Assembly (NCBI GenBank): GCA_003450815.1
Contig: DMES01000077.1
Coordinates: 97,671 to 161,670 of the forward strand
Origin: Elusimicrobiota bacterium
GTDB taxonomy: Bacteria; Elusimicrobiota; Elusimicrobia; Elusimicrobiales; UBA9959
DNA: 64,000 bases
Direction of reading: 5' to 3'
Positions 10,750 to 54,690 of this stretch are shown here, piece after piece; the stretch's first letter is position 1, and every line of letters starts with the position of its first letter. The translations under genes were made by a program, and so were the position numbers. A model generated the notes under the pieces. That model saw only the letters and a list, made by a program, of their open reading frames with translations, was not told the origin of the DNA and did no database searches.

Positions 10750-11907
10750 TTATTTTAATTTTTCCTGGCTGGAAAAGTTGCGTTCCAGGGTAAAGCCCGC
10801 CAATATTTCCCTGTCGTCAGCGGACGGCTTGCCGGCTATATGGGCGGCGATGGTTTCGCCAAGGCCCGGCCCCAGCATAAAGCCCTGGCCGCACATCCCC
10901 ACCGCCAGCACATAGCCCTTGAGAGCCCCGGGGAAATCAACTATGGGGAACCCGTCCGGAGTCATGGGGTACAGTCCGCGCCAGGTGCGGCGCACCTTGA
11001 TGTTTGCCAGGTCCGGCATAAGCGCGGTCATGCGTTTTGAAACCTCAGGGAGGAATTGAGATGTTGAACGCCTGTCACGGCCCCATATGGGCGGCTGGGG
11101 GGTAAGGCAGAACACTATCTGTCCCTCCGAATTCTGGTAGAAATAATAATTCTTGGACTTGTCGCCGGGCCGTATATCCACCACCATCGGCTCAAAAAAC
11201 CTCTCCATAGGTTCGGTTATCCCGGCTTCGTGGCAGTCAGGGTTTACAGGAACCTTTACGCCGGCCATAGCCGACACCTCCGCCGCATCCGCTCCCGCGG
11301 CGTTTACCACCCAGGACGCATTGTAACGACCCAGTGAGGTAACGACCCCTTTTACCACGCCCGCTTCCGAGCATATTTCCGTCACAGGCTCCATAAAATG
11401 GAACTCGGCCCCCAAACCCAGCGCTCTCCTGTAAAACGCGTTTATAGCCAGCAGGGGTGAGGCTGAGCCGTCGTCCGGCGCGTAGGTGCCGCCGCGCAAT
11501 TCCTTTTGGGTGATTCCAGGTATCAGGCCGCGCATTTTATCCGCATCCAGCCAGTCTATATTCAGGCCGAAACCGCGCTGCACCTTAAGCAGTTCCTTAA
11601 GCACTTCCTCGTCCTGCTCCGTGTAAACCGGGAAAGCGTAACCGCCTTTTAGCCAGCCTATATCCTCGCCGCACTTTTCCCTCCAGGTGGAAAAAATATC
11701 AAGGCTGCGCAGGCAGGCTTTTATTTTTGCGCCGTCGGAATGCGTGGCGCGCACGCCGCCTATGGCGCATTTGTTCTGGCCCTGTCCGACAGAGGGCATG
11801 GTTTCAAGAACCAGCGTTCTCAGGTTGCGCCCTGCGAGCGCCATGGCAAGCGGTACGCCGACAGATCCGGCGCCTATGACAATGACATCGTAAGTTTTAA
11901 CGGACAT
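10750..11907 (-). CDS. FAD-dependent oxidoreductase (DAO / sarcosine oxidase beta-like)
   Basis: YDVIVIGAGSVGVPLAMALAG is a dinucleotide-binding fold, and the overall layout is DAO-family. Confidence 0.8.
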   Translation of the reverse strand: MSVKTYDVIVIGAGSVGVPLAMALAGRNLRTLVLETMPSVGQGQNKCAIGGVRATHSDGAKIKACLRSLDIFSTWREKCGEDIGWLKGGYAFPVYTEQDEEVLKELLKVQRGFGLNIDWLDADKMRGLIPGITQKELRGGTYAPDDGSASPLLAINAFYRRALGLGAEFHFMEPVTEICSEAGVVKGVVTSLGRYNASWVVNAAGADAAEVSAMAGVKVPVNPDCHEAGITEPMERFFEPMVVDIRPGDKSKNYYFYQNSEGQIVFCLTPQPPIWGRDRRSTSQFLPEVSKRMTALMPDLANIKVRRTWRGLYPMTPDGFPIVDFPGALKGYVLAVGMCGQGFMLGPGLGETIAAHIAGKPSADDREILAGFTLERNFSSQEKLK

Positions 11908-11927
11908 ATGATCTCCAGTAACTGCAG

Positions 11928-12012
11928 GGAATAGGGGATAGCGAATAGGGGCTAGGGGTTAAGGAGTTTCTTGTTTCTTCACCCTATACGCTCTTCGCTA
12001 TCCCCTATACCC
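11928..12012. repeat. Word-palindrome hairpin (GGGxTAG / CGAATAG words)
   Basis: ataggggatagcgaa in the 5' arm pairs perfectly (15 nt) with ttcgctatcccctat in the 3' arm. The core is aaggagtttcttgtttct at 11961-11978. Confidence 0.75.
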
Positions 12013-12017
12013 TGCTG

Positions 12018-14201
12018 TTAAAACCCGCTCCAGGAGGCCTTTTCCTCTTCTTCCGTGCGGCATGTGATGTTTGAAAAAGCTCCAAGCGGCACTTCCATAA
12101 ACAGCGGCCTCTGGCTTAAAGCCGTGACTTCCTTAAGGTCCACGCCCTCACTTTTATAAATGCCGGCAATAAGCGAGGCGCAGGTTTTCGCCCCGCAGGC
12201 TCCCATACCGGCGCGGGTAACGGCTTTAAGCTGGTTCAAATCCCTTACACCCGCGCGTATCGCCTTCCGTATCTCGCCGAGCGAAATCCGTTCACATCGG
12301 CAGATAATGGCCGAATCCGGCATAGCAGAAAAACCGCCGCCGGTCTTTTCCGGTTTCTGCGGCTCGTAAAGCTTCAGGCCCGCGGCTCTGTCAGCAACAG
12401 CTGAGGTCGTTTTCGCTATCACTATCAGCGTGTTCTCTGCCTTAAAATCTTTCACATCCGTCACCTGTGCCTTCTCAAGCCCTGCTCCTTCGTAGTCTGT
12501 AAGGGTTACTGTATCGCCTTTTTTCACAAGGCCCCGGCCTATTTCAAAAGGAAGCGCTACCGTCGGGTGTTTCGGGTCCTTGCGCTTGTCAACAATGGTA
12601 ACGGCAAGCCCCGGGCAGATAAGCAGGCATTTGTAGCATCCAATGCAGTCCCCCTCAAATTTTGGGACGGCCATCATGTTGCTTTTAGGTATTTTTATGG
12701 ATTTTTTAGGGCAGACCGTGGCGCACGGGTCGCAGGGAATTTCCTGGCGGCAGTGAAGCACGGGATACACCGCTTTATCATGCTCTCTTACGGCGCTTTC
12801 ATGTGTTTTGCCCGGCCGCGATTTCAGGGTTTGCAGGCGTTCAAACCAGAAGTCAGGCACCGGCCCCGTCATCACACCCAGGCTCTTAAGCACCTTGTGA
12901 GCGGTTATCCTGCCGCTGAACATCGCGGCCGACGCCTCGGCTATTTCTTCGGCGTCACCGCACACGAAAGCGTTCATGCCGAAAGCTACGGCCTGGCCGT
13001 GGAATTCGCTCACGGAATTTAAGCCCACCGCCACCAACAGCGTGTCCGCCGCGAATGTTTTTTCCGTGCCTTCAAGAGGCTTGAAATTTTTATCCACCTG
13101 CGCCACCGTGACAGTTTCCAATCCGGTTGTTCCGCCGGCTCTTACCACGGTGTGGCTGGTATAAACAGGCACGCCCAGCCGCTTGATTTTATCCAGATGT
13201 ACCTTATAGCCGCCGCAATGGTCCATGGCTTCTATAAGGCCGGCCACCTTTATACCGGCCTGGAGGGCGTGATACGCGGCTATAAGCCCCACATTCCCGC
13301 CGCCGACTATGAACAGATTTTTTGAGGGCCGCACCAAATCACGGTTCACCAAAGTCTGGAATGCCCCGGCGCCGTAAACGCCCGGCAGGGTATTGCCCTC
13401 AAAAGCGAGTGTTTTCTCCCTTGCGCCAGTTGCGCTTATAAAAGCCTTGGGTTTTACAAGATAATAGCCGCCGTTATAAACCACACCAACGCGCCTGTCT
13501 GAAAAAACGGCGACGCAGGCAGCGTTCACCCACACCTTTACAGATGGGTACGCCTTAAGCTGGTCCTCAAGCTTATCGGCGATATCTATGCCTCTCGTGC
13601 CCGCGAAACAATCCTCTACCGACCCGAAAAATTTATGCGTCTGCAGCACAAGCTTGCCGCCAAGCTTATGCTTGTCGTCTATTATAAGCGTGCTGACATC
13701 AAGTTTCCCAAGCTCTGCGGCGGCGGCAAGTCCCGCTGGGCCACCTCCCACAATAAGCGCATCCACTTCAATTTCTTCCACCCTTCCCAACTCCTGCGCG
13801 CAGGTCTCGCCCTTTTGGCCTGGAAAGCGCGGTGCGCCATTTTTCTCCGCACCTCCCGCGCCGGCGTCCTGCTCCGACATGGCGGGCCCTGTCGCGCTCG
13901 GCATTTTGGGCAGGCCGTTAAGGCGGGCCACGGTCATTCCTTCTCTGACCTTTGTCACGCAAGCCTTTACCGGCAGACCGTCGGCTACCACCGCGCATTG
14001 GGCGCACTGGCCGTTGGCGCAGAAAATGCCCTGCGGGCTGCCGTCTTTTTTATGATAGCTGAAAATCTTGATCCCTGAGGCGAACAAAGCGGAGGAGATG
14101 ACCTCATCCCCAAGGGCCTCCAGGGACTTCCCTTCAAAAGTAAAACGGAGTTTCTTTTTTTCTTCCGGCTCAAGCACAGGATGGTCTGTTATTCTTTCCA
14201 T
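12018..14201 (-). CDS. Multidomain iron-sulfur flavoprotein: 2Fe-2S domain, FAD/NAD(P) oxidoreductase, 4Fe-4S dicluster and BFD-like domain
   Basis: CANGQCAQCAV (SoxA/HcnA-like 2Fe-2S), VGGGPAGLAAA and VGGGNVGL Rossmann motifs, CIGCYKCLLICP ferredoxin, and a CRCERISLGEI BFD-like domain. The start was moved to MERITDHP (14201) because the 59-aa extension overlaps the divergent gene. Confidence 0.75.
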   Translation of the reverse strand: MERITDHPVLEPEEKKKLRFTFEGKSLEALGDEVISSALFASGIKIFSYHKKDGSPQGIFCANGQCAQCAVVADGLPVKACVTKVREGMTVARLNGLPKMPSATGPAMSEQDAGAGGAEKNGAPRFPGQKGETCAQELGRVEEIEVDALIVGGGPAGLAAAAELGKLDVSTLIIDDKHKLGGKLVLQTHKFFGSVEDCFAGTRGIDIADKLEDQLKAYPSVKVWVNAACVAVFSDRRVGVVYNGGYYLVKPKAFISATGAREKTLAFEGNTLPGVYGAGAFQTLVNRDLVRPSKNLFIVGGGNVGLIAAYHALQAGIKVAGLIEAMDHCGGYKVHLDKIKRLGVPVYTSHTVVRAGGTTGLETVTVAQVDKNFKPLEGTEKTFAADTLLVAVGLNSVSEFHGQAVAFGMNAFVCGDAEEIAEASAAMFSGRITAHKVLKSLGVMTGPVPDFWFERLQTLKSRPGKTHESAVREHDKAVYPVLHCRQEIPCDPCATVCPKKSIKIPKSNMMAVPKFEGDCIGCYKCLLICPGLAVTIVDKRKDPKHPTVALPFEIGRGLVKKGDTVTLTDYEGAGLEKAQVTDVKDFKAENTLIVIAKTTSAVADRAAGLKLYEPQKPEKTGGGFSAMPDSAIICRCERISLGEIRKAIRAGVRDLNQLKAVTRAGMGACGAKTCASLIAGIYKSEGVDLKEVTALSQRPLFMEVPLGAFSNITCRTEEEEKASWSGF

Positions 14202-14264
14202 AAAATCGCCTCTTGTAACGGCAAAATCTCGTTTTATTTCAATATAGTATAATAAAAAACCGAT

Positions 14265-16919
14265 ATGGCGACCAATAAACTGCGGGACATGTTTAAACGC
14301 GTTGTCGCGAACCGGGCGTTCATTTTTTTGCCGGCCGCGGCGGCTATTGCGCTGGCGCTTTGGCAGTTGAGCCGCCAAACATTCTACTCAATTCAAAACC
14401 TTTCCGCTTACGCGGATCGCGGAGAGCTTATACTGCATGGCGTAAGCGACAAGGCTTTAAGTTACAGTATGCCTTTTTTCAGCCTGCTGAACGCCTTAGC
14501 CCTTTATCACTGGCAGGGCACCTTAACACCCGTTATCTTTTTTGCGGGTTTTCTGGTCTATCTGCTTTGTTATTCCATAGGCGCCGCAAACGGCGGGCCG
14601 CTGCGTGGTTTAATTTTCGCTTTTTCCGCCATATTTCTGGGTTTTACGATTAAACTCCCGGAAAGCGAACAGCTTCTCTACACGCTGGCCCTGCTTTTAT
14701 ACACAAATGCCGCCGTTCTTAAACTACAAAAGAACACGGCCCCGATCGCAATAGCGGCCGGGTTGGCGCTTGGCGTATCCCTGCTCATCCGCTCGCCAAT
14801 GCTTCTTTTCCCGCTGCCTGCTATTTTATATGAACGCTTCTGGGGGAAGCATCTGCGTTTGCGGCGCTACGCCCTTAACACCTCACTTTTTTTACTCTCT
14901 TCCTACATACTGCTGATCCCCTGGATCCGTGTCAATTACTCTCTTTTCGACCGTTTTATTCCCTTTGAAGAGGCGCGCGGCGACTGCAACCTGATAACGG
15001 GGGCCAAGGGAACCGTGTTTACAATGGAAGGCGACTGCAGGGCCTTCGGCGGCCTTTCAAGGACAGAGCCGGTTTACTCCTGGGCCTTAAAAACAGTGGC
15101 GGCCTCGCCTTTTAACTATATGGAAGCCGTAGCTAAAAGAATGTGGCAGGTAGCTCTGATGTTCCCCCTGCTTTTGGCGGCCGCCATTATCGCTCTTTTT
15201 TTATCGCGCCGGAGAGAGACGCGCTTTCTCGCTGTGTTGGCAGGCTATTTTGTAGTTATCCATTGTCTATTGTCCATTGAGGAGAGATACTTCTATCCTC
15301 TGCGCTACCTTCTGACGCTTATTACGGCCGCCGGAATATTTGACTTTCTGAAAACCTTATGGTCGGGAGCGGAAAGAAAAAACGGCGGGATATTTATCTT
15401 CAGCGGCGTTTTCGCCATTTTGATTCTTTTTTCGTTCTGGACCGTTTATAAAACCCTTTTATGGCCGGCCCGGGCCGCGGAACCTGTCATCGCTGTCACA
15501 CGCGGGCTTACAAATAACCCCTCCGACGCCTGGCTGTTCAAAAAGAAAGGGGAAATTCTACTGTCATTCAACAGCACTGAAATAGGCATTGCCGCCCTTA
15601 CGCGCTACGCCGGACTTTCTAAGAATCCCTGCCTGGAAACAATTTACATACTTGATACCCTGGCCTCAAAAAAGCCGCCGGCACCCGACGGGTTTGAAAA
15701 CATCTACGACCTCACCATCGTAAAAACCCTGCGCGAACTTGAGCTGAACGACATGAAAGCCGCGGCGGCCTCTTTTGCCCTTGCGCAGGGGATGTGGGAA
15801 AAAGAAAAAAACTCCCTTAAGGGGCTGTCTTACGAAAAAGACCGACGGCTGGCCGCCAGCATACGCCCCTCCAATAACAGCTTTTGGGATTATGACCTTT
15901 ATGCCGCCTTTTACTATTTCCCGCTTAAGCGGCGCGAGGCAATATTGACCCGGATGTCCTCTCTTACGACTCTTACGCCTAAACTTAAATATTTAATGCT
16001 GGAATCCGCGCTGGAAAACGGCAAAAAAGCCTCGGTTACAGACGCGCTTAACCGGCTTTCATCCAAACTGGAAAAAGAACTGCCGCCCTCGGAATTTAAC
16101 TATGGCCGCCAAGCCGGCGCTCTGCTGGAGGCTTTGCTTAAACCTGCTGGCGGATGCTCCACAAAAAACCTGTCTGAACTTTCCGGTTTAGCGGCTAAAG
16201 CGGTTGAAATATCTATAACAAAGAACGGCGTTCAAGATACTATCAACCGTTTCAGTCCCGGGTCCGGAGAAACTGGCTGGCAAAAAATTTCTCTCTTGTA
16301 TTCGGCTTATGAAGCCAAAAATGCGAAGCAGAGCTTTGCCGCCCAGGCCGAAGCTCTTGCCGCCGCAGAGCCGGACAATCTTGTTTTATTCTATTTATCG
16401 GCCTGCCGCGTCGCCGCGCAGACCGGGGGGCGGCCGCTGCCGGACCTGGGCAAAAGAATTTATCCGCTGGCGACGGCCGCTTCAGTTTTGCTTGCAAACA
16501 GCCAAAAAGCCGCGGCTCTCAAGCTCTTGCGGACAGCGGCTAACTCCGGCACGTTTGATGCTGACGGCCTGGAAGCCGCGGCCATAACCGCGCAGGAGGC
16601 GGAGGATTATCCGCTCGCTCTTGAGCTGATCAATAAAGGCCTGGCAGGGAAGCCTGTTTCGCCGGCGCTTTATAATGACCGCGGAGTTATCCTGCGTTTT
16701 AGCGGAAAAAACCTTGAAGCGATAGCTGATTTTAAAAAAGCCGTGGCTCTTGACGGACGATGCTTTTCAGCCGCGTTAAACCTGGCCTCAAGCCTTGAAC
16801 TTGCGCACGACAAACAGGCGGCGCTGAAAATCTATTCCGGTCTCGCCCTCGACGGCTCAATGCCGCGGGATGTACGGCAGACCGCGGCGCAAGCCGCCGC
16901 ACGCCTTGAAAAACGCTAA
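14265..16919 (+). CDS. Polytopic membrane protein with a C-terminal TPR-repeat domain (possible ArnT/PMT-like glycosyltransferase)
   Basis: The N-terminal ~400 aa hold about 10 hydrophobic helices. The C-terminal half is helical and Ala/Leu-rich, ending in recognisable TPRs (YNDRGVILRFSGKNLEAIADFKKAVALD). The enzymatic assignment is inference only. Confidence 0.55.
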   Translation: MATNKLRDMFKRVVANRAFIFLPAAAAIALALWQLSRQTFYSIQNLSAYADRGELILHGVSDKALSYSMPFFSLLNALALYHWQGTLTPVIFFAGFLVYLLCYSIGAANGGPLRGLIFAFSAIFLGFTIKLPESEQLLYTLALLLYTNAAVLKLQKNTAPIAIAAGLALGVSLLIRSPMLLFPLPAILYERFWGKHLRLRRYALNTSLFLLSSYILLIPWIRVNYSLFDRFIPFEEARGDCNLITGAKGTVFTMEGDCRAFGGLSRTEPVYSWALKTVAASPFNYMEAVAKRMWQVALMFPLLLAAAIIALFLSRRRETRFLAVLAGYFVVIHCLLSIEERYFYPLRYLLTLITAAGIFDFLKTLWSGAERKNGGIFIFSGVFAILILFSFWTVYKTLLWPARAAEPVIAVTRGLTNNPSDAWLFKKKGEILLSFNSTEIGIAALTRYAGLSKNPCLETIYILDTLASKKPPAPDGFENIYDLTIVKTLRELELNDMKAAAASFALAQGMWEKEKNSLKGLSYEKDRRLAASIRPSNNSFWDYDLYAAFYYFPLKRREAILTRMSSLTTLTPKLKYLMLESALENGKKASVTDALNRLSSKLEKELPPSEFNYGRQAGALLEALLKPAGGCSTKNLSELSGLAAKAVEISITKNGVQDTINRFSPGSGETGWQKISLLYSAYEAKNAKQSFAAQAEALAAAEPDNLVLFYLSACRVAAQTGGRPLPDLGKRIYPLATAASVLLANSQKAAALKLLRTAANSGTFDADGLEAAAITAQEAEDYPLALELINKGLAGKPVSPALYNDRGVILRFSGKNLEAIADFKKAVALDGRCFSAALNLASSLELAHDKQAALKIYSGLALDGSMPRDVRQTAAQAAARLEKR

Positions 16920-16981
16920 GATCCAAAGCCTGTGGTGAAATTTAGTACAATATAAGGAAGTCTAATACTAGGAGCGCTAAA

Positions 16982-17524
16982 ATGAAAAAAATATTTTTAA
17001 GTTCTGCTGTAGCGGTTCTTTCGTGCGGCTTTCTTGCCGCTGAAACCATTAACTTCAGCGACGCGGATTTTTCAAAAAGCCTTAATACGGTGGCCGTGAC
17101 TGCGGCACAGAATGTTAAAGCCGATATCTCTCCGGCGATAAAACCGGCCGTGGCTAGAACCGGCCAGTATGTGCAGGTTTCCGGCTATGTCAACCTCAAC
17201 GGCAACGGCTGGATGCCGTCCAACGGCGGCTATACCAGCGTCAATCTCACCGGTTGGGGCTCATTCCAGGATTCCACCGGCAAAGTCACCTCCAACCAGG
17301 CATACATCACGGAGTCGGCCTCAATGTGGCTATACCCCAATCAGTATGCCTACCAAACCGTGTATCCCAATGTCTATGTCCAGTTTTATAAGGACGGAAA
17401 ACCCGTGGGCTCCACTTATCTGCGCGGCAGCATCAGCGTAAGCGGCTGGCCGAGCAGCAGCTTTGTTTCTCTCAGCGGCAGCGGCTACCTGAGCGGCTCT
17501 ATTTATGTGGAGGACGCTCAGTAG
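16982..17524 (+). CDS. Secreted hypothetical protein
   Basis: Signal peptide MKKIFLSSAVAVLSCGFLAA with an upstream aggag RBS. The composition is beta-rich (Y/S/G/N). Confidence 0.5.
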   Translation: MKKIFLSSAVAVLSCGFLAAETINFSDADFSKSLNTVAVTAAQNVKADISPAIKPAVARTGQYVQVSGYVNLNGNGWMPSNGGYTSVNLTGWGSFQDSTGKVTSNQAYITESASMWLYPNQYAYQTVYPNVYVQFYKDGKPVGSTYLRGSISVSGWPSSSFVSLSGSGYLSGSIYVEDAQ

Positions 17525-17565
17525 CTTTTCGCCGAGGCGAAAGCTGTTTTAAGTCACGAAAAAAA

Positions 17566-17600
17566 GGGCGGCGGCTTTGAACGCCAGCCCTTTTTGTTTT
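17566..17600 (+). terminator. Rho-independent terminator candidate
   Basis: A stem gggcggcg / cgccAgccc (one bulge) is followed by tttttgtttt and preceded by an A-run. Confidence 0.55.
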
Positions 17601-17611
17601 AAGATATATCC

Positions 17612-18520
17612 ATGCGCATACTTGAGGGAAAAAGCCTTTCGGCCGAAATACTGGGCTCGCTGATACCGCGTGTAAAAGCGGTGAAAGCCGGGCTTGGACG
17701 CCCGCCGTCGCTTGCCATAATAAATTATTTTGGGGATTCTCCCTCCGCGGTTTATGTAAAACGCAAGATCGCCGCCTGTGAAGCGCTCGGCATAGAGGTA
17801 AAACTTTTCAACCCCGCGGCCGCCGACGGCTACACCGCCTTTAAAAACCTGCTGTCCCGCCTGGGCGCGGATGCCGCCTGCGACGCCATCATGCTTGAGC
17901 GCCCGCTGCCGGACGGCTTTGAGACCCTTGAAACCTGGGACGCTCTCCCCGCCGCCAAGGATGTGGACGGTTTGTCCTCACTCAATATGGGCAGGCTCTT
18001 TATCTCTACAAAATTCCCGGAAATAGCCGCCGGCGGCTTTTTCGCGCCTTGCACGGCATTGGCGGTAATACGCCTGATGAAGTTTCATGGCATAGATCCC
18101 GCCGGGAAAATTATAGCCGTGGCCGGCCGTTCGGCGATAGTCGGAAAGCCGCTCGCGCAGATGCTGACCATGCTTAACGCCACCGTTACGCTTTGCCACA
18201 CAAAAACGCCGGACCTGCCGGGGATTTTCAAACGAAGCGATGTCGTGATAAGCGCGGCGGGCAAGCCCCGCTGGATAAAAAAAGAAATGCTTCAAGCGAG
18301 CGCGGCTGTAATAGATGTGGGCACAAATTTCGACGAGACCGGAAAAATGTGCGGCGACGCGGATTTTGAGGATATAAAAGGCTCCATTTACGCCGCCACG
18401 CCCGTCCCGGGCGGGGTGGGCCCTGTAACGCTGGCCTGCCTGCTTGAGGCCTCGGTCGCGGCCGCGGAAACACGGGCCCGTTCTACATCGGGCGGATTGT
18501 CCTCAGCAGAGAAAAAATAA
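17612..18520 (+). CDS. folD: Bifunctional methylenetetrahydrofolate dehydrogenase/cyclohydrolase
   Basis: ILEGKSLSAEI..., VGDSPSAVYVKRK-like, GRSAIVGKPLAQML and PVPGGVGPVT motifs. Confidence 0.9.
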   Translation: MRILEGKSLSAEILGSLIPRVKAVKAGLGRPPSLAIINYFGDSPSAVYVKRKIAACEALGIEVKLFNPAAADGYTAFKNLLSRLGADAACDAIMLERPLPDGFETLETWDALPAAKDVDGLSSLNMGRLFISTKFPEIAAGGFFAPCTALAVIRLMKFHGIDPAGKIIAVAGRSAIVGKPLAQMLTMLNATVTLCHTKTPDLPGIFKRSDVVISAAGKPRWIKKEMLQASAAVIDVGTNFDETGKMCGDADFEDIKGSIYAATPVPGGVGPVTLACLLEASVAAAETRARSTSGGLSSAEKK

Positions 18521-18553
18521 AAAGTTTGACGTTTGGGGAGGAATAATACGGAC

Positions 18554-19024
18554 ATGAAAACAACAATCTTACTATTATCCGCATTTTTTATCACGGGCGC
18601 GTTGTTATTGCCTGCCGACGCCCAGGAAAAAACCAGCTACGCGCCGCAGGACGGCTCGCTTCAGACCGACACAGCGGACCAACCGGCTGCGTCTCTGAAG
18701 AAAGTCACAACCAAAAAAAAACCGGCAAAAAAGAAAAAAATAAAAAAAGCGGCTGCCCCCGCGCCGGTATCCGAGTATAAATTCAAAGCCGTGGGCACCC
18801 CGCCAACATATAAATTCGATAAACAGGGCGACCCCATAATAAAAACCAAACCGAAAGCTTCCCCCAAAAAAAAGAAAAAGGGGAGAAAGTCCGCGGCCAC
18901 AAACACTGAACAGACCACCCTGAAGCTACAAAAAACCCCCGGATTCGGAGAAGAGACGCCCGCCAATGCCGCCACGGATTCCCAAGGCAGCGCTCCCGCA
19001 AATAATCCGGAGGAAAGCCAGTAA
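18554..19024 (+). CDS. Secreted lysine-rich low-complexity protein
   Basis: GGAGG RBS before the ATG at 18554. Signal peptide MKTTILLLSAFFITGALLLPADA, followed by KKKPAKKKKIKK and PKKKKKGRK tracts. Confidence 0.5.
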   Translation: MKTTILLLSAFFITGALLLPADAQEKTSYAPQDGSLQTDTADQPAASLKKVTTKKKPAKKKKIKKAAAPAPVSEYKFKAVGTPPTYKFDKQGDPIIKTKPKASPKKKKKGRKSAATNTEQTTLKLQKTPGFGEETPANAATDSQGSAPANNPEESQ

Positions 19025-19497
19025 TGGCGGACCTGCTGGTAAAACTCTACTCCCTGCCGGAAAGCGGCGGGGTTTGTGCCGCCCTTAAAGAAAAAGGTGT
19101 TGAAATAAAACGCGCCATCGGCCCTGAAAAATCGGCGGTGGTCGGCTGGGTGCTGGCCAATTTTTCAAAAGCCTGGGCAAGCGAGGCGGATGTGGCATTC
19201 TCGCAAAATCCTCCCGGCCTTTTTATTGCGGTGAAAGACGGCGGCATTCTCGGGTTTGCCTGTTATGATGCCACCGCCAAAGGCTTTTTCGGGCCGATAG
19301 GCGTGGCGGAAACAGCGCGAACAGGCGGGCTTGGCACCGGACTTCTCCTGCGGACGCTTGAAGCCATGCGCGAAGCCGGCTACGGCTATGCGATCGTGGG
19401 CTGGGCGGGGCCGGTGGATTTCTTTGAAAAGACCGTAGGCGCGGTGGTTATTGCGGGCTCGGAACCCGGGGTTTATAAGAATATGGTAAAAGGGTGA
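19024..19497 (+). CDS. GNAT-family N-acetyltransferase
   Basis: GPIGVAETARTGGLGTGLLLRTLEAMREAGYGYAIV matches the acetyl-CoA binding motif A (R/Q-x-x-G-x-G/A). Confidence 0.65.
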   Translation: MADLLVKLYSLPESGGVCAALKEKGVEIKRAIGPEKSAVVGWVLANFSKAWASEADVAFSQNPPGLFIAVKDGGILGFACYDATAKGFFGPIGVAETARTGGLGTGLLLRTLEAMREAGYGYAIVGWAGPVDFFEKTVGAVVIAGSEPGVYKNMVKG

Positions 19498-19595
19498 TTA
19501 AGTAATTAAGTGATTGAGTAAAGAGTTATTACGCTGGGGGAGAGAATATCTAACAAAAACCTTAATCACTAAATCACTTAATTACTTAATCACTC
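19494..19595. repeat. Word-palindrome hairpin (GTGATTAA/GTAATTAA words)
   Basis: The arms are gtgattaagtaattaagtgattgag and cttaatcactaaatcacttaattacttaatcactc. The core starts taaagagttatt (19519). It overlaps the GNAT stop codon and ends 7 nt before the next ATG. Confidence 0.7.
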
Positions 19596-19601
19596 ACAAC
19601 A

Positions 19602-20372
19602 ATGAAACTTAAAAACGATTGGCACAAAGATTTCTTTAATAACACATTCTATAATCCGGCCTCTCCGGCGGCGGTGGAAAAAGCGCCATCAGAGGCGCGC
19701 TTTGTATTAAAACAGTTGAAACTTAAAAAAGGGGCCGCTCTGCTGGACCTCTGCTGCGGGCCGGGCCGGCACGCGGTGGAATTCGCAAAAAAAGGCCTGA
19801 ATGTCACCGGCTATGATTTCTCAGAAGAATACCTGAATGAAGCCGCCGCCCGCGCCAAAAAGCGTAAAGTAACAATCCGCCTGACGCGCGGTGATATGCG
19901 CGCTCTTAAATACAAAAATGAATTTGACGCCGTAGTCAATCTTTTTACCAGCTTCGGCTATTTCCAGAGATTTTCCGATGACATGAAAGTTTTAAAGGGC
20001 CTCTTCCGCGCGCTGAAACCCGGCGGCAGGCTGCTGATAGATATTATTCACGGCGATTTTGTACGCGCACACTTCCTCCCCCGCAACTGGGCCAAAATGC
20101 CGGGCGGAGGCTTTCACCTTGAAAACACATATTACCACAAGAACAGGAAAGGGGTTTTTAACACCTGGACCATATTGAAACCGGGAAAAAAACCGGTCAG
20201 CCGCTCCTTCTTTAACCGCCTCTACAACAAGAAAAACATAAGCGCGGCCCTGAAAAACGCCGGGTTGACTCCCTTAAAATTCTGGGGCAATTTCCGCGGC
20301 CAGCCACTCTCCACCCAAAAAAACCGCTTAATAGTGCTGGCGGTGAAAAAGCCTAAAAAAACCTCCAGATGA
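19602..20372 (+). CDS. Class I SAM-dependent methyltransferase
   Basis: LLDLCCGPGRHAVEFAKKG (motif I), followed by an acidic loop and FDAVVNLFTS. Confidence 0.8.
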   Translation: MKLKNDWHKDFFNNTFYNPASPAAVEKAPSEARFVLKQLKLKKGAALLDLCCGPGRHAVEFAKKGLNVTGYDFSEEYLNEAAARAKKRKVTIRLTRGDMRALKYKNEFDAVVNLFTSFGYFQRFSDDMKVLKGLFRALKPGGRLLIDIIHGDFVRAHFLPRNWAKMPGGGFHLENTYYHKNRKGVFNTWTILKPGKKPVSRSFFNRLYNKKNISAALKNAGLTPLKFWGNFRGQPLSTQKNRLIVLAVKKPKKTSR

Positions 20373-21981: not shown

Positions 21982-22766
21982 AAAAAACCATTGATAACTT
22001 CCCAATGTTTCCCACAGATCTGAAAATACTCGGCGTGCTGGAATCCTGTTTTCAGGAAAAATTCGGCACCCCGCGCCAGCCGCAGCTTGTGCCCGGCTCT
22101 TCGGCTAAATTGCGCATTTATCCGCAATATGCTCCGAAACATTCTCTTTCAGGCTTATCGGGATTCAGCCATGTCTGGCTTCTGTCCTGGTTTCACTTAA
22201 ACACAAATAAAACCTTTCACCCTAAAATTCACCCACCGCGCCTCAAAGGCGGCAAAATAGGTGTTTTCGCCTCGCGCTCGCCCCACCGCCCAAATCCCGT
22301 GGGCCTGTCGCTCGCAAAACTTGAGCGGGTGGAGGAGGATACTCTTTACTTTTCCGGCATAGACCTGGTAAACGGCACCCCTATTTTTGACATCAAACCT
22401 TACCTTCCCGCAAGCGACGCCGCGGCGTCAGCGCTGGCCGGCTGGCCGGAACACAGCGCTTTCCCTGAATTAGAGGTGGTATTTTCAACACGGGCGCTTA
22501 AGGACATTGCGGCAATTGAAGCATCGGGCGGACGGAATTTCAGGACGCTGGTGGCCGATACTCTGCGGCACGACCCGCGCAACGCCAGGGACAAAGCGCA
22601 GATGAAAGACGGCGCGGACTGGGGCTTTTTCCTCTGGAATCACGATGTGCATTTTTCAGTGGCCGGCGGCACGGCCATAGTGCTGCGCGTGGACACCGGA
22701 ACAAAGTTTGAGAAAAAGTTTCACCGGGAAAAACCACCCCCCCCGACAATTAATCCGGGGACATAA
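21978..22766 (+). CDS. trmO: tRNA (m6t6A37) methyltransferase TrmO (TsaA/YaeB family)
   Basis: FGTPRQP..., SHVWLLSWFH, RSPHRPNPVGLSLAKL and GTPIFDIKPYLP motifs. Confidence 0.8.
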   Translation: MKKTIDNFPMFPTDLKILGVLESCFQEKFGTPRQPQLVPGSSAKLRIYPQYAPKHSLSGLSGFSHVWLLSWFHLNTNKTFHPKIHPPRLKGGKIGVFASRSPHRPNPVGLSLAKLERVEEDTLYFSGIDLVNGTPIFDIKPYLPASDAAASALAGWPEHSAFPELEVVFSTRALKDIAAIEASGGRNFRTLVADTLRHDPRNARDKAQMKDGADWGFFLWNHDVHFSVAGGTAIVLRVDTGTKFEKKFHREKPPPPTINPGT

Positions 22767-22802
22767 TACCTATTTTTCTGAATTAGGTATTATGTCCCCG
22801 GA
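22754..22802. terminator. Bidirectional hairpin between convergent trmO and rlmN
   Basis: An 18-bp perfect stem, tccggggacataatacct / aggtattatgtccccgga, with a 13-nt T-rich loop. Both stop codons lie inside the stem. Confidence 0.6.
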
Positions 22803-23818
22803 TTTACGGCGAGCTGGCCGCAGGCAGCCATTATATCGGACCCTTTTTCCACTCGCAGATAGGTGCGTATCCCGGCCGCAATCAGCAGCTTCTGAAATTC
22901 TTTGACCCGCGCGTGGCTGTCAGCGCGTACTGGGCCGCCGCGCCACAGGTTATGCGGAATAAGATTTACACGGCAACCAATGCCCTTAATCAGCTTAATT
23001 AATTTCTCCGCGTCGGAGGGGGAATCGTTTTCCCCGCCAAGAACAAGATACTCAAAAAACACCTGGGCATTCCGGGCCAGACAATAATGCCGCGCGGCCT
23101 CAATCACCTCCGCCAAAGGATATGTCGCATTCATCGGCACAAGTTTTGCTCGTTGCTTTTCATCCGCCGTTACAACGGATATGGCCAGTTTTATTTTAAG
23201 GTCAGATTTTGCGAGCTCCTGTATTACCGGCACAATGCCCACTGTGGATACCGTCATTTTTGTCTGCGGAAAATTACAACCTTTGTTGTCGGAAAGTATA
23301 AGTATGCTTTTTTTGACGTTTTCCCAGTTTAAAAAAGGTTCACCCATGCCCATGAACACTACGCTGCTTAAGTTCCCGCCGGCCTCACGCAGGCAGGCGG
23401 CGAACTGCGCCGTTATTTCTGAAGGCTTAAGGTCGCGCCTGAAACCAAGAGCGCCTGTGGCGCAAAAAACACAGCCGCAGGCACAGCCGGCCTGTGAAGA
23501 GAGACAGGCGGAAACCCTGTTTTTACCGGGAATAATTACGCTTTCAACCTCAGCGCCATCCTGAAACCTGAAAAGCAGTTTAATCGTGCCGTCAATTTTT
23601 GAAACTCGCCTGTCAATTACCGGAAACCAGGCAAGCGAATACCCGGCTGCGAGTTTAACTTTAACGCTTTCAGGAATGCCGGACAGCTCCGAAAAGTTCC
23701 CGGCATTTTTTCTGCATAAACAGCCAAACACCCGCGTTGCGTGGGCTTTCTTCACGCCAAGCGAAATCATTATCTCCGAAAGTTCGGAACGGGTGTAATC
23801 CCTGATATCAGGAAACAT
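22790..23818 (-). CDS. rlmN: 23S rRNA/tRNA m2A methyltransferase RlmN (radical SAM)
   Basis: CLSSQAGCACGCVFCATG is the radical-SAM cluster motif. GMGEPFLNW and the C-terminal AACGQL are also present. Confidence 0.9.
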   Translation of the reverse strand: MFPDIRDYTRSELSEIMISLGVKKAHATRVFGCLCRKNAGNFSELSGIPESVKVKLAAGYSLAWFPVIDRRVSKIDGTIKLLFRFQDGAEVESVIIPGKNRVSACLSSQAGCACGCVFCATGALGFRRDLKPSEITAQFAACLREAGGNLSSVVFMGMGEPFLNWENVKKSILILSDNKGCNFPQTKMTVSTVGIVPVIQELAKSDLKIKLAISVVTADEKQRAKLVPMNATYPLAEVIEAARHYCLARNAQVFFEYLVLGGENDSPSDAEKLIKLIKGIGCRVNLIPHNLWRGGPVRADSHARVKEFQKLLIAAGIRTYLRVEKGSDIMAACGQLAVNPGT

Positions 23819-23900
23819 AGGTCAATAATACAAAAAAGTGAAGCAGGGGTTTGTCGAGGGTTTAAGACTAACAACGGTGTAAACCTTAAGCCTTGTGCCT

Positions 23901-24926
23901 TCAGCCTTCAGCCAGTTCAAACATTTTTTCTATGGCTTTTTTAGCCCTGGCAGCTATTTCGGGGGGGACTGTTACTAATTGTTCTTTTGAAGGTTTTTTA
24001 AGCGTCTGCAGGATATTTTCAAGCGTAACGGCTTTCATGTACGGGCACAGCCGGCACATGGCGATAAAGTTTTTATCGGGAAACTTTATGCGCGCCAGTT
24101 CCCCAAAACCGCATTCCGTAACCAGCAGATAGGCGGCGGCGTTAGTGTTCTCCACATAGCGCATCATGTCGCCGGTGCCGCCCATATAATCCACCGCGTT
24201 TATTATATCCGAGGGACATTCCGCGTGAGCAAGAACGGCTACGCCCGGGTAATTCTTCCGGTAAAGCGCTATTGTACGCGCATCAAAATGCTCATGAACT
24301 ACGCAGGAACCGTTCCATAAAATTATGTCCTCGCCGGGCGTTTTGCCCAGAACTTTAGCCAGATTTGCGCCCATAAACCTGTCGGGGATGAAAATCACCT
24401 TTTTGTTCTTTTCGTAGATACGGCGAAGTATCTTTTCCGCGTTGGCGCTGGTCACAATGCAGTCGGACTCCGCTTTCACCTCGGCTGAAGTGTTTATATA
24501 GGTCACTACCGACGCGCCGGGATGCGCGGCTTTTAGCCCGCGCACATCTTCGGCTGTCACGCTTTCACTGAGCGAGCAGCCGGCGTCAAGAGAAGGAATG
24601 TACACTTTCTTTGCGGGGTTTAAAACGGCCGCCGTTTCAGCCATGAACCGCACTCCGCAGAAAACAATAATATCCGCCGCCGTATGCCGCGAATCGTCGG
24701 CCAGCTTGTAAGAATCACCCACAAAGTCGCCTATACCAAGGATTATCTCCGGCGTCTGGTAAACATGCGCGCAGATAACGGCATTTTTTTCTTTTTTAAG
24801 CCTGTTTATCTCTTCCGTCAGCGCCGCTATTTGGTCCAGCCGTCCCTCCACGCACCGATGGTGGAGCCCCAGCGCCATCAGCCTTTTGGATTCTTCCTTA
24901 ATCTCGCTTTCATTGATACAAGACAT
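23901..24926 (-). CDS. nadA: Quinolinate synthase
   Basis: ICAHVYQTPEI, FCGVRFMAETA, VVTYINTSAEVKA and AHAECP motifs. Confidence 0.9.
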   Translation of the reverse strand: MSCINESEIKEESKRLMALGLHHRCVEGRLDQIAALTEEINRLKKEKNAVICAHVYQTPEIILGIGDFVGDSYKLADDSRHTAADIIVFCGVRFMAETAAVLNPAKKVYIPSLDAGCSLSESVTAEDVRGLKAAHPGASVVTYINTSAEVKAESDCIVTSANAEKILRRIYEKNKKVIFIPDRFMGANLAKVLGKTPGEDIILWNGSCVVHEHFDARTIALYRKNYPGVAVLAHAECPSDIINAVDYMGGTGDMMRYVENTNAAAYLLVTECGFGELARIKFPDKNFIAMCRLCPYMKAVTLENILQTLKKPSKEQLVTVPPEIAARAKKAIEKMFELAEG

Positions 24927-24978
24927 AAAAATTCAGGAACACCTTCCCTAACCCCTATTCCCTATTCGCTATTCGCTG
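24927..24978. repeat. Half copy of the GGGxTAG word element (no partner arm)
   Basis: The minus strand reads gcgaatagcgaatagggaataggggttagggaaggtgttcctgaattttt and then the nadA ATG. The words overlap the last 5 codons of the upstream phosphodiesterase gene. Confidence 0.45.
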
Positions 24979-26874: not shown

Positions 26875-27065
26875 AAGACCTCCTGGCTTAAAGCAGGCAT
26901 CGGTAAAGGTATAGATAAAGGAACTGTCACTTCTCACTTGACGCTGAATTATGCTTAGCCCCTACCTTAACCTCTACCTTTCCCTTTGTCTCTGCCTGCT
27001 GTTACTAATTATAGCAAGTCTGCCTCAAGCACCGCTAAAACCAAAATATTTGTACAATATCGGAT

Positions 27066-31540: not shown

Positions 31541-31562
31541 TTAAGGTGACACAGAACTTAAG
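31541..31562. repeat. Inverted repeat flanking the RayT-like gene (3' side, overlaps its last codons)
   Basis: ttaaggtgacacagaacttaag is the reverse complement (one mismatch) of the aagttgtgtgtcacct units at 32339-32377. Confidence 0.65.
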
Positions 31563-32224
31563 TCCGTTTTCCTGGGTTTAGGGCCTGGCCGCTGCTTAGC
31601 CAGCCTTCGCCCCAGGTTGCCTTCCAAAGCGGCAATAAATTCTTTTCCTCCAAGCGGACGCCCTGTTGAGGAATGCTTTTTTATCATATCTATTTCCTCT
31701 TTTTTTAAATCCCAATCTGCAAGAGGCCCCCGCAAGGCAATAATTTCGTTCAATCGCATCGGGTACGCCAGCAGATCCGCCTGCCCTGAAAGGCGGCTGT
31801 TGACGCTGCTCTAGGGATACTCGCAAGGATGCGCAACAAGGCCCGCGCGCACCGGGTTGTATTCACTATACCGGACCACGGCGCAAAGATAGGCATCATC
31901 CATGATATAAGACGCAAACCGCCCTTGCCACAGACAGCCTTTCCAGCCCTCTCGCGCGTTGATCAGACGGGTATAGTGCCAGTGCGCCATCCCTATTGCG
32001 CGCCCTAAGCCAGACTCATCCAGCGGCACGGCCACCAGGTGGGAATGATTCTGCATAAGGCAATAGCTCCATATTTCAACCCCGCATTTTTCGCACCACT
32101 CTTTCATTAACTGAAGATAAAGCTTAAAATCTCCGTCGTTAAAGAAAGTTTTCTGCCGCCTGTTCCCGCGCTGCGTAATATGATGCGGATATCCCGGCGC
32201 TACCACCCTGGCTATACGTGACAT
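31541..32224 (-). pseudogene. REP-associated tyrosine transposase (RayT / IS200-like Y1 HUH) interrupted by one in-frame TAG
   Basis: YPHHITQRGN, the HUH motif NHSHLVAVP and the catalytic-Tyr region VVRYSEYNPVRAGLV are present. The frame continues after the TAG (complement of 31811-31813) into SSVN...TGRPLGGKEFIAALE..GRRL...GPKP. The TAG replaces the Trp of the usual YPWSS motif. AAGGAGGG RBS. Confidence 0.75.
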
Positions 32225-32336
32225 AAGCCCTCCTTTCCCTTCTGGCCTAAATAGCATAGCAGACGAACACGACAACGGCATGTCGGGTTGCCATAAATTT
32301 TCTCAATTTAAAAGGGAATGCTCCGCGTGGCGAGAA

Positions 32337-32379
32337 TTAAGTTGTGTGTCACCTAAACCTCAAGTTGTGTGTCACCTTA
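32337..32379. repeat. Two direct copies of the 16-nt unit aagttgtgtgtcacct on the 5' side of the RayT-like gene
   Basis: Copies lie at 32339-32354 and 32362-32377, separated by aaacctc. They are inverted relative to 31541-31562. Confidence 0.65.
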
Positions 32380-33990
32380 TTACATTTTTTCGGGGGAAGA
32401 AACTCCCAGCAGGCCTAATCCTTCGGAGATAACGGCTTTTACCGCTTTAAGCAGGAACAGCCGCATGGCAGTGGTTTGCGGTTCCTCCGGCACAAGCACT
32501 TTGTGCTTTGTATAGAAGGAATGGAACAAAGCGGAAAGCTCGGTGAGGTAAGTAGTGAGATAGTGGGGGGAAAAGTCACCGGCGCAGGTTTCGAGCGTTT
32601 TCTCAAACCATAAAAGTTTTAACGCCAGGGCGCGCTCTTCGGGGTTAAAAGTTATTTCAGCGGGCTCAAACCCGGCCTTTACATCCACTCCTTTTTCGGC
32701 CGCATTGGCGAAAATAGAGCAAATACGCGCGTGAACATACTGCACATAGTAAACCGGATTCTCATTTGAGCGCTTTTTCGCCAGATCTATATCAAAGATC
32801 AGGTGCGTGTTGGGGCCGCGCATGGCGAAAAAGAACCGGCAGGCGTCGGCGCCCACTTCCTCCACCAGCTCTTTCAGCGAGATAAAATCCCCTTCCCGCT
32901 TTGACATTTTCACAAGCGCCTCTCCGCGCTTTAAGATCACCATCTGGTGGATGATGACCTTAAAAGCTCCTGAGGTTTTGCCCAAAGCGGAAACAGCGGC
33001 TTCCATCCTGGGCACATAGCCGTGATGGTCGGCACCCCAGATATCAATAAGTAAATTAAATCCCCTGTCGTATTTGTTGAGGTGGTAGGCGATATCATTA
33101 AGGAAATAGGTGTTCCTGCCGTCGGATTTAACCAGCACCCGGTCCTTATCGTCGGAGCTCATCTCGGAAGAGCCGCCGAACCAGACCGCCCCTTCTTTTT
33201 CATAAGCCATGCCTCGGCTTTTAAGGGCTTCAAGGGCCTTGCGCGGAGCGTCGGCTGCGTGCAGTTCGGATTCCAAGAACCATCTATCAAACTCAACGCC
33301 GAAAGCGCTCATATCCGCCTTATGCAGCAGCAGCATCCTGGCCACGGCAAATTCGGAAAATTGCTTTTCCGTCCAGCCGGAGGCTTCCGGCGACATGGCC
33401 GCGGCTATGTCTTTCAGATAAGCGCCTTTGTAGCCGTCCTCCGGCGGTTCCGTCCCCTCAAAGCGTGCCTTTAGCGAGCGGCCAAGCAGGTCCACCTGCC
33501 GCCCCATGTTATTGACATAAAATTCGGAACTTGCCCCGGCTCCCAGCAGCCGCAGAATCTTCACAAGGCTGTCGCCTAGCGTGGCCCCCCGCCCCGAAGC
33601 AAGGTGAAGGGGGCCGGTGGGATTTGCGGAAACAAATTCCAGGTTTATTTTCTGGCCCGCCCGCGCCGGATTATTGAAATAGGCCGGACCTGAAATAATA
33701 TCCCGTAACGCCTCAAAAAGAATTTCGGTTTTTAAATTTATATTTACAAAGCCCGGGGCGATCACGCCGGCTTCAAAATCAGGCGACAAAACAGCCGCCA
33801 GCTCTTCGGCTATTTTTAAAGGCGGTCTCTTAAGCAGTTTGGCGGCGGATATGGGCCAGGCTATGGAAATATCCGCCCGTATATGGGGCGGCGGGGCGCT
33901 GAGGCTGAAGGCCGCGGTTTGGTCTGCGGAAAGCTTAAAGGCGCGCGCGGCGCGCTCTTTCAGTTCCGCTTCAAGCGCCGAAAGTTTCAT
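32380..33990 (-). CDS. argS: Arginine--tRNA ligase
   Basis: EFVSANPTGPLHLASGRG (HIGH region), the class I anticodon-binding C-terminus and a terminal Met are typical of ArgS. Confidence 0.92.
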   Translation of the reverse strand: MKLSALEAELKERAARAFKLSADQTAAFSLSAPPPHIRADISIAWPISAAKLLKRPPLKIAEELAAVLSPDFEAGVIAPGFVNINLKTEILFEALRDIISGPAYFNNPARAGQKINLEFVSANPTGPLHLASGRGATLGDSLVKILRLLGAGASSEFYVNNMGRQVDLLGRSLKARFEGTEPPEDGYKGAYLKDIAAAMSPEASGWTEKQFSEFAVARMLLLHKADMSAFGVEFDRWFLESELHAADAPRKALEALKSRGMAYEKEGAVWFGGSSEMSSDDKDRVLVKSDGRNTYFLNDIAYHLNKYDRGFNLLIDIWGADHHGYVPRMEAAVSALGKTSGAFKVIIHQMVILKRGEALVKMSKREGDFISLKELVEEVGADACRFFFAMRGPNTHLIFDIDLAKKRSNENPVYYVQYVHARICSIFANAAEKGVDVKAGFEPAEITFNPEERALALKLLWFEKTLETCAGDFSPHYLTTYLTELSALFHSFYTKHKVLVPEEPQTTAMRLFLLKAVKAVISEGLGLLGVSSPEKM

Positions 33991-45551: not shown

Positions 45552-49340
<3,789 letters not shown>

Positions 49341-49414
49341 AGCTGAAGCGCTGAAGTCCTGAAGCTCTGAAGTAAAGAGCTTCTCTAAACCTTCAGCTCT
49401 TCAGCGCTTCAGCA
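49341..49414. repeat. Word-palindrome hairpin (CTGAAGnn words) between gyrB and gyrA
   Basis: The arms are agctgaagcgctgaagtcctgaagctctgaag and cttcagctcttcagcgcttcagc. The core is taaagagcttctctaaac (49373-49390). Confidence 0.75.
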
Positions 49415-49436
49415 CTGATTTTAAGGAGCAATTGAA

Positions 49437-52005: not shown

Positions 52006-52041
52006 AAAAAAAAGCCGCCGGTTTCAAACCGGCGGCTTTTT
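52006..52041. terminator. Bidirectional rho-independent terminator between gyrA and the ACT gene
   Basis: The order is an A8 run, the stem agccgccggtt with loop tca and aaccggcggct (11 bp), then a T5 run. Confidence 0.75.
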
Positions 52042-52470: not shown

Positions 52471-52484
52471 AAATTTGAGTTCTC

Positions 52485-52601
52485 CTGATACGGCACAGCC
52501 ATAGGCTAGGCCGTCTGATGGGCATAGCCCCTGATACGGCACAGCCATAGGCTAGGCCGTCTAATGAGCATAGCTCCCGATACGGCACAGCCATAGGCTA
52601 G
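52485..52601. repeat. Tandem array (about 2.5 units) of a 46-nt twin-hairpin repeat
   Basis: The unit is ctgatacggcacAGCCataGGCTaggccgtctgatGGGCataGCCC. Units lie at 52485-52530, 52531-52577 and 52578-52601 (partial). Confidence 0.8.
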
Positions 52602-54504: not shown

Positions 54505-54690
54505 ATTGCTATAAGCCATAAGCCCAAGTCGTCATTCCGGCGCAAGCCGGAATCCAGGAATATCGACGACACTGGACCCCGGCTTGCGCCGGGGTGACAG
54601 CAAGAGTTTCACCAACGATGAAAAATGCTTCTACGAGACCTCCGCCTTACGTTTTGGACTATGGCTTAAGGCATACGACATATGCCAGAA
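54505..54690. repeat. Composite word-palindrome element (ATAAGCC words) with nested GC hairpins between nifU and nifS
   Basis: The outer arms are ctataagccataagcccaagtc and ttggactatggcttaaggcat. The inner 27-nt units at 54531-54557 and 54572-54598 are reverse complements of each other. The core-like caagagtttcacc lies at 54601. Confidence 0.6.

Follow-up and report, generated by a model that had tools for sequence, protein, structure and literature searches.

The hairpin between gyrB and gyrA

The window analyzed here is a 64,000-nucleotide (nt) stretch of an Elusimicrobiota genome, part of a 199-kb groundwater-metagenome contig, and our subject is a hairpin of short repeated words (E8, 49339–49416, + strand) that lies between gyrB and gyrA within it. 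The two genes belong to a replication-origin region that also holds dnaA, dnaN, and a DciA-like gene; the minimum of the cumulative GC-skew falls at ~42–44 kb of the window. The gyrB gene (45582–49340) encodes 1252 aa and includes an intein (Pfam Intein_splicing), and the GyrA sequence is 86–88% identical to GyrA of Elusimicrobiales/Elusimicrobiaceae metagenome-assembled genomes.

The 5′ arm of E8 (49341–49372) consists of four CTGAAG octamers, AGCTGAAG CGCTGAAG TCCTGAAG CTCTGAAG. It is followed by a loop and apical part (49373–49390) containing GTAAAGAGCTTC and by a complementary 3′ arm (49391–49414) made of CTTCAG words. Folding of the RNA from 49336 to 49419 yields −43.9 kcal/mol, corresponding to z = −6.1 against 200 dinucleotide shuffles. 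The gyrB stop codon, TAG at 49338–49340, overlaps the base of the stem. The ATG of gyrA stands at 49437, preceded at a distance of 8 nt by a Shine-Dalgarno sequence (SD), AAGGAG (49423–49428; duplex −7.4 kcal/mol), which is located 3′ of the hairpin. An earlier reading of this DNA, hereafter the original prediction, had treated such hairpins as blocks of stop codons in all three frames on both strands, often followed by genes without an SD, and had proposed that they serve as translational insulators, re-initiation devices, or stabilizers of mRNA rather than as plain terminators. The stop pattern it described for E8 is present on the sequence, with TGA at offsets 4, 12, 20, and 28 of 49341–49372 followed by TAA. 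The second part of the description fails at this site: because gyrA has its own SD, the flagged copy provides no example of an SD-less downstream gene.

In most of the closest relatives (86–88% GyrA identity), which have no hairpin at this site, the gyrB stop codon is followed by 15–35 nt that include an SD and then by the gyrA ATG. E8 is missing from this spacer in the 16 closest relatives, and one relative (L007) has a hairpin of different words there (9917–9972), composed of stop-free GAGTCGG. A counterpart of the gyrA SD region, ...TTTTCAAGGAGCC..., is found in hairpin-less relatives, and in the window E8 is placed exactly between the gyrB stop codon and the conserved ...TTTTAAGGAG. Word-arm hairpins also occupy the gyrB–gyrA spacer in L038 (816–889), L050 (3432–3508), L057 (9872–9951), and L071 (9879–9972). 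The five carriers outside the window are the Elusimicrobia relative L007, three Deltaproteobacteria, and one Nitrospirota; their words measure 7–9 nt and are different in each, and the stop-rich arm is either the 5′ or the 3′ one. Word-arm hairpins are found in the gyrB–gyrA spacer of at least three phyla.

Related hairpins in the window

Hairpins were inventoried by combining inverted-repeat and tandem-repeat searches (Tandem Repeats Finder, TRF) with folding. A sliding-window scan of minimum free energy was unspecific in GC-rich coding DNA, and TRF arrays with a search for reverse-complement partners were used instead; the loop core was located by a Hamming scan. The inventory comprises eight strong hairpins (E1–E8), one weak hairpin (H1), and one solo arm (H2), with arms of 2.9–4.7 words at a period of 7 or 8 nt (TRF). 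The hairpins fold at −30 to −58 kcal/mol, with stems of 22–35 bp and loops of 17–48 nt. Nine of the ten copies are flanked by genes that run in the same direction, and the upstream stop codon falls inside the 5′ arm or 0–8 nt from the stem. Five open reading frames (ORFs) end within a word, namely those of dus, the 146-aa gene, the acetyltransferase, nadA, and GDPD. No more word-arm hairpins were detected in the ~16 kb of contig past either end of the window.

Three of these copies follow one another on the − strand upstream of mutS. E1 (1199–1278), between dus and mutS, has arms of GGGTATA-type heptamers and a sense-oriented loop core, TTAAGGAGTTCTTAA; the dus stop codon TAG lies within its first word, and the mutS ATG is 7 nt past its 3′ arm. 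E2 (2260–2384), between the 245-aa gene and dus, has a long loop and arms of GCGAAT words, which carry no inherent stop. E3 (3131–3223), between the 146-aa gene and the 245-aa gene, has arms of GTGATTAA octamers, as does E6 (19494–19594, + strand), between the acetyltransferase and methyltransferase genes, with which it has an exact 19-mer in common. The arms of E6 are 96% complementary, the upstream stop codon TGA is within its first word, and the downstream ATG is 8 nt past its 3′ arm. On the − strand, macA and macB are separated by E4 (8338–8442; GGGTAGA heptamers), and a Fer2/FAD oxidoreductase gene and DAO by E5 (11919–12020; GGGGATA/GCGAATA heptamers). The loop core of E4, AAGGAGTTTCTTGTTTCTG, reads on the + strand and is thus antisense to the genes; E5 has the same core, again antisense, within a shared 18-mer loop, and DAO retains its own GGAG 3′ of the element. 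E7 (26892–27000), a hairpin of GGTAAAG/GGTATAG words between divergent genes, is the sole copy in the window that is not operon-internal. The two remaining copies are on the − strand: H1 (23840–23913), between nadA and a radical SAM gene, is a degenerate, weak hairpin of CTGAAGG words, the second of which supplies the TGA at which nadA ends, and H2 (24944–24977), between GDPD and nadA, is a solo array of GCGAATAG/GGAATAG words without a partner arm, in which the second word provides the TAG that closes GDPD.

The word families of this genome are GGGTATA, GTGATTAA, CTGAAGNN, GGTAAAG, and GCGAAT. A conserved apical core, AAGGAGTTTCTTGTTTCTG and its variants, is located directly 3′ of the 5′ arm (8370–8388, 11961–11979, and 1239–1253 in the window). 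The form AAGGAGTTYCTT(G)TTTCTG is common to hairpins with different arm words and recurs in loops of L087, L088, L110, L112, L113, and L114 alongside GGG or GCCATAA words; it is conserved across genomes with 57–84% Dus identity, in either orientation relative to transcription. This core might serve as a protein-binding site or form an apical mini-stem. GGG-family copies with the same apical core lie at different junctions in five genomes. Together with the 19-mer shared by E3 and E6 and the loop shared by E4 and E5, this is how a dispersed repeat family would behave.

The GGG family invites the suggestion made for GGGNATC repeats, namely that these are regulatory repeats forming a G-quadruplex or i-motif. 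The 5′ arms of E1, E4, and E5 contain four or more G3 tracts spaced 3–4 nt apart, and similar heptamers formed quadruplexes in vitro (Rehm et al. 2015, PMC4692102). However, G-tracts are absent from E8 with its CTGAAG words and from the GTGATTAA, GGTAAAG, and GCGAAT families, which still exhibit the same architecture and positions, and a complementary arm favors the hairpin. We consider a quadruplex function very improbable.

The stability of the stems, and a T-run that follows the stem in some relatives (for example, L091 ...CGATTTTTTTATG), might instead suggest that the elements terminate or attenuate transcription within operons. Intrinsic terminators have a short GC-rich stem, a loop of 3–8 nt, and a T-run, whereas the window elements have long stems, larger loops, and no T-run after the stem, and a terminator scan called none of E1–E6, which is to say none of the elements within 1–20000. 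Termination at these sites would cut off the essential downstream genes gyrA and mutS, and the organism uses ordinary terminators elsewhere. The chance that the hairpins are terminators is, in our estimation, close to negligible, and in this respect the original prediction, which had noted that most stems lack a T-run and had argued against a plain terminator, was borne out. The ordinary terminator in question lies after gyrA (52009–52041), where a perfect 16-bp GC-rich palindrome with A- and T-runs on either side constitutes a canonical bidirectional intrinsic terminator. A search of Rfam gave no match to the elements at the gathering threshold, only miRNA-precursor-like ones at 14–27 bits against thresholds of 37–100.

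Two other structures were observed in this part of the window. An ACT-domain gene and a 200-aa gene diverge from a spacer in which a 46-nt unit is repeated 2.6 times in tandem at 94% identity (52484–52601), and a GC-rich 27-bp hairpin without word periodicity lies between the NifU-like and cysteine desulfurase genes (54531–54598; −71.7 kcal/mol in a 130-nt window).

Stop codons, start sites, and the loop core

The stop codons are the feature that originally drew attention to these arms. The offsets given for a second copy, at 1201–1230, are correct, and the 5′ arms are indeed dense in stops on both strands, the element being palindromic. The further claim that every word contains a stop does not hold, as the GCGAAT words (2260–2384) and GGGTTCC (8338–8371) are stop-free. 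We ran the dinucleotide-shuffle control that had been proposed for stop content on the 16 5′ arms provided by eight elements on both strands. These contain 72 stops, compared with 56.0 ± 3.6 in the shuffles, and 11 of the 16 are closed in all three frames, compared with 4.8 expected; the 3′ arms contain 21 stops, and none is closed. Under the control that had been proposed for it, the observation of stop-rich arms holds up.

Tandem copies of one word are not independent, however, and shuffling breaks the tandem repetition: a single stop-containing word repeated four times with a 7- or 8-nt period automatically provides four stops and places them in all three frames. When the word family is taken as the independent unit, with the expectation derived from the letters of the word, the excess disappears. 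Four of the five word families in the window contain a stop (3.2 expected, P = 0.40), as do 11 of 18 in the clade (10.4 expected, P = 0.48). The density of stops follows from words that are rich in T, A, and G and poor in C, combined with a repeat period that is not a multiple of three. Moreover, elements at homologous or orthologous positions in relatives are built from words without stops, among them AATCGAA/GGAATCG, GAGTCGG, and GCAGAGNNN. These comparisons suggest that the three-frame stops are probably a by-product of word composition and repetition rather than a selected feature.

A dedicated device, in which stops were selected to halt ribosomes and the AAGGAG of the loop replaced a missing SD, would account for the closed arms, for the five upstream ORFs that end within a word, and for the four downstream genes without an SD (those for MutS, the 245-aa protein, MacB, and the methyltransferase) that start 3–8 nt past the stem. 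A translational role of this kind has been suggested for TAACTGA repeats, which place stops in three frames upstream of starts lacking a ribosome-binding site (RBS) (MacGregor 2015, PMC4679880). Against it stand the word-level result, the stop-free words at the same junctions of relatives, and the published GGGAATC repeats, which contain no stop.

The start sites do not point to such a device either. An SD-like duplex of −4.5 kcal/mol or stronger precedes only ~50% of the 56 genes called in the window. Many of the SD-less starts in the window are preceded by an A/U-rich TTTATG context. The original prediction that several genes start without an SD just after the 3′ arm was correct for mutS, the gene at 3126, macB, and the methyltransferase gene; dus, also listed, starts 12 nt away. 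Where the downstream gene does have an SD, as with gyrA and DAO, it is kept between the element and the ATG, so that the element lies upstream of it. Hairpin-less relatives also have SD-less or SD-poor starts for mutS, dus, and, mostly, macB. In these genomes, the start of mutS overlaps dus in ATGA or comes 4–29 nt after it, where it lacks an SD and stands in an (A/T)TTTATG context. The start of dus overlaps the 245-aa gene in GTGA, which is the ancestral arrangement. Upstream of macB there is usually a U-rich spacer, but a few of the hairpin-less relatives have an SD. The poor starts are thus an ancestral trait and not a consequence of the hairpin, which does not stand in for a lost SD.

Nor does the loop supply one. 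The AAGGAG/AAAGAG motif, described earlier as lying in the sense of the mRNA in six of eight copies, does so in four of the six copies in which it is clear. The apical core reads in the sense direction in four loops and antisense in five, at 35–45 nt from the start codon, and a core that occurs in both orientations cannot work as an SD. With gyrA having its own SD at the flagged site, the idea of a dedicated insulator or re-initiation device is in our judgment improbable. In E1 alone, the loop motif could direct translation of a small ORF through the stop-free 3′ arm (AAGGAG-N6-ATG, 27 codons); this candidate was dropped, as neither a start codon nor a conserved frame is found in other copies or in L110 and L113.

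Turnover in relatives and comparison with known repeats

For the other junctions, a metagenome scan with Dus yielded 80 loci. In many of these relatives, dus and mutS overlap in ATGA or are separated by 4–29 nt ending in (A/T)TTTATG. In others, the same junction holds a word-arm hairpin of 75–181 nt built from quite different words, including GAGAGTG/GAGTTAA, AATCGAA, GGAATCG, GCCATAA, GAAGTAAG, GCAGAGNNN, and GGTNNCA. Presence or absence of the element, and diversity of its words, extend to five junctions: dus to mutS, macA to macB, the 245-aa gene to dus, the 146-aa gene to the 245-aa gene, and the oxidoreductase gene to DAO. The elements are lineage-specific. The 5′ arm is purine-rich in all 23 Elusimicrobia elements, with or without stops and, owing to the palindrome, on both strands; among elements from other phyla, arm polarity is mixed.

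Because two genes with Y1_Tnp domains occur in this genome, we considered whether the hairpins are repetitive extragenic palindromic (REP) elements mobilized by a REP-associated tyrosine transposase (RAYT). The elements are REP-like in being intergenic, palindromic, multi-copy, and clade-specific. One Y1 gene lies in the window (31811–32224, − strand; Pfam E = 9e-11) and scores 58.7 bits with the NCBIfam model REP_Tyr_transpos, below the cut-off of 80. Its surroundings (31541–32390) contain three copies of AAGTTGTGTGTCACCT: an inverted one to the left of the gene and a direct pair to its right. The rest of the window lacks this motif. The second gene, of 202 aa, is located just beyond the left end of the window (L166 13873–14481) and is flanked by a half-copy of AATCCGGGGACATAATACCTATTT (L166 13630–13660). 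Since each Y1 gene is flanked by a different repeat of its own, and neither by word arrays, the word-arm hairpins are not the REPs of these RAYT-like genes. There is also no conserved GTAG foot across the families, and we regard mobilization by a RAYT as highly unlikely. A near-perfect 24-bp palindrome of AATCCGGGGACATAATACCTATTT was observed between convergent genes at 22752–22804, and a related palindrome fills the dus–mutS spacer of L102 (7459–7503). The AATCCGGGGACATAATACCTATTT palindrome and the 202-aa Y1 gene look like a true REP/REPIN–RAYT pair, distinct from the word-arm hairpins.

The explanation we favor, and hold to be probable, is that E8 belongs to a family of palindromes dispersed between cistrons, tolerated as an insert that folds back on itself, with its stop codons a by-product. 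In each arm, about four degenerate words of 7 or 8 bases form a long simple sequence repeat, and the two arrays face each other across a short conserved apical core, (T)AAGGAGTTYCTT.... This genome has several word families side by side, and its relatives have either these families or different ones, in many cases at identical gene junctions. Turnover of the elements would be rapid, by insertion or loss and by slippage of the words. Copies would survive only within the few bases that separate the stop codon of one cistron from the start region of the next, be that an A/U-rich spacer or an SD. Transcribed within the operon, the element would fold into its hairpin of −30 to −58 kcal/mol without acting as a terminator. 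With a 5′ arm that is purine-rich and C-poor on both strands and a word period not divisible by three, every frame receives stops. An upstream ORF next to the element, or one that has lost its own stop codon, would end within one or two words. We infer that fold-back keeps the stop codon near the start, and that ancestral translational coupling would thereby be tolerated. The stem may also present a barrier to 3′ exonucleases and/or a site for RNase III that uncouples the stability of the flanking cistrons. Stems of 22–35 bp are long enough in principle for putative RNase III processing. The hairpin may stabilize or process mRNA, and the putative mRNA-stabilizing function named in the original prediction is plausible. 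Outside this set, in L048 (9225–9375; Ignavibacteria), a tRNA-Ala gene (9264–9337) lies between inverted AAATTCC heptamer arrays, an arrangement that resembles a stable-RNA processing stalk.

Several results weigh against this account. The stop excess over dinucleotide arm shuffles is significant, and some selection on stops is conceivable in this genome. Sense and antisense folds of 53 long spacers, compared to test for selection through G-U versus A-C mismatches, are equally stable (29 versus 24), which gives no positive sign of selection at the level of the transcript. No transposase, target-site duplication, or other mobilization mechanism was identified; at the flanks of E1–E8, no consistent target-site duplication was found, a possible CCTGAC at E2 being the only candidate. 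Opposite loop orientations are no proof of independent insertions, as the orientation could flip through recombination between the arms. Covariation in the GGG family, where 3 of 24 pairs show double changes, was uninformative because the family is too conserved.

A more active role for the fold can be imagined, akin to a ribosome shunt, in which the stem would join a stop codon at its 5′ base to an SD-less start at its 3′ base. Terminating ribosomes would then re-initiate across the looped-out 75–140 nt at translationally coupled junctions; the ancestral junctions would have been coupled, with overlapping or near-adjacent stop and start, and only inserts that form a tight hairpin would survive, since the stem brings the two together. 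The ancestral ATGA and GTGA overlaps or 4–29-nt spacers at dus–mutS and at the junction of the 245-aa gene with dus are consistent with this idea, and hairpin genomes have the stop codon in or at the first word, an ATG 3–12 nt past the last, and a preserved A/U-rich spacer. Any insertion into a spacer of 0–30 nt would, however, give identical geometry, and E7 is located between divergent genes. We also know of no mechanism in bacteria for shunting across a stem, and we view re-initiation of this kind as unlikely. The purine-first polarity might, jointly with fold-back re-initiation, also prevent exposure of the C-rich arm as free untranslated RNA, a suggestion we find similarly doubtful.

In several phyla, the spaces between operon genes abound in inverted arrays of heptamer or octamer repeats. 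What the present analysis adds is the existence in Elusimicrobia of multi-family populations with a conserved apical core, together with the repeated colonization of the same tightly coupled junctions. With words and repetition explaining the stops, three-frame stop content requires no special selective explanation, and the hypothesis of a dedicated translational insulator is removed. What remains worth asking is whether the elements affect the processing and stability of mRNA and whether genes are coupled across the stem. If fold-back coupling operates, it would represent a new bacterial way to tolerate or exploit insertions inside operons, and re-initiation across the stem would be a bacterial counterpart of ribosome shunting.

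Among known systems, the cyanobacterial STRR repeats resemble the word-arm hairpins in being tandem heptanucleotide arrays in intergenic regions of operons. Mazel and colleagues are said to have described them in 1990 as heptamer repeats, mainly direct arrays of three fixed words. By that description, they differ from our elements in that no conserved core is described for them.

REP elements and BIMEs are multi-copy, imperfect intergenic palindromes within operons, with clade-specific sequence at conserved positions (Ton-Hoang et al. 2012, PMC3333891), and to this extent they are alike. The arms of our elements, unlike those of REPs, are internally periodic, the Y1 genes are not flanked by word arrays, and GTAG, though contained in certain words of the GGG family, is missing from the CTGAAG, GTGATTAA, and GTAAAG families. 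Known effects of REPs include protection of mRNA 3′ ends. Gilson and colleagues reportedly noted the species specificity of such palindromic units (PUs) in 1987, and Liang, Rudd, and Deutscher are said to have found in 2015 that an E. coli REP ≤15 nt from the stop codon lowers translation of the upstream gene. The copies studied here are all within ~8 nt of a stop.

The Correia/NEMIS elements of Neisseria are likewise inverted arms around a conserved core, inserted between genes and co-transcribed with them; RNase III binds or cleaves their hairpin, which alters the expression of neighboring genes (PMC2649163). They have fixed 26-bp terminal repeats and a TA duplication, in contrast to the variable word arrays, without a detected duplication, of the elements described here.

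The TAACTGA repeats of marine Beggiatoaceae, Cyanobacteria, and Bacteroidetes are direct heptamer repeats of 2–6 units that, having stops in three frames, can overlap an upstream ORF by only about two units and lie just upstream of mostly RBS-less starts (MacGregor 2015, PMC4679880). They match our elements in part, as heptamer arrays with three-frame stops near RBS-less starts. Theirs, however, is a single word in direct repeats, with one inverted case, whereas the window contains inverted pairs of many words.

The closest resemblance is to the GGGNATC heptamers, simple sequence repeats of Xanthomonas and Nostoc for which four units are preferred (Rehm et al. 2015, PMC4692102). Between aligned ORFs, the coding strand carries the G-rich array in the first 50 bp past the stop codon, overlaps with the stop included, and the non-coding strand carries it just ahead of the next ORF; each Xanthomonas genome has 70–75 close inverted pairs capable of forming a stem-loop, two species carry the repeats at shared junctions with varying length and sequence, and the repeats are transcribed, with no function found (PMC4692102). 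Our elements differ in comprising several unrelated word families, in their 8-nt periods, in the apical core AAGGAGTTYCTT, in being nearly all paired, and in that only the GGG family has G3 tracts, which are absent from the CTGAAG and GTGATTAA families. The features in common are about four units of 7 nt in the published pairs and 2.9–4.7 copies at 7- or 8-nt periods here, a purine-rich array after the stop codon with its complement before the next co-directional ORF, and occupation of the same junctions in relatives with variation in sequence and length; GGAATCG words occur in the relative L098. The word-arm hairpins and the inverted GGGNATC pairs are elements of one kind and have their polarity in common.

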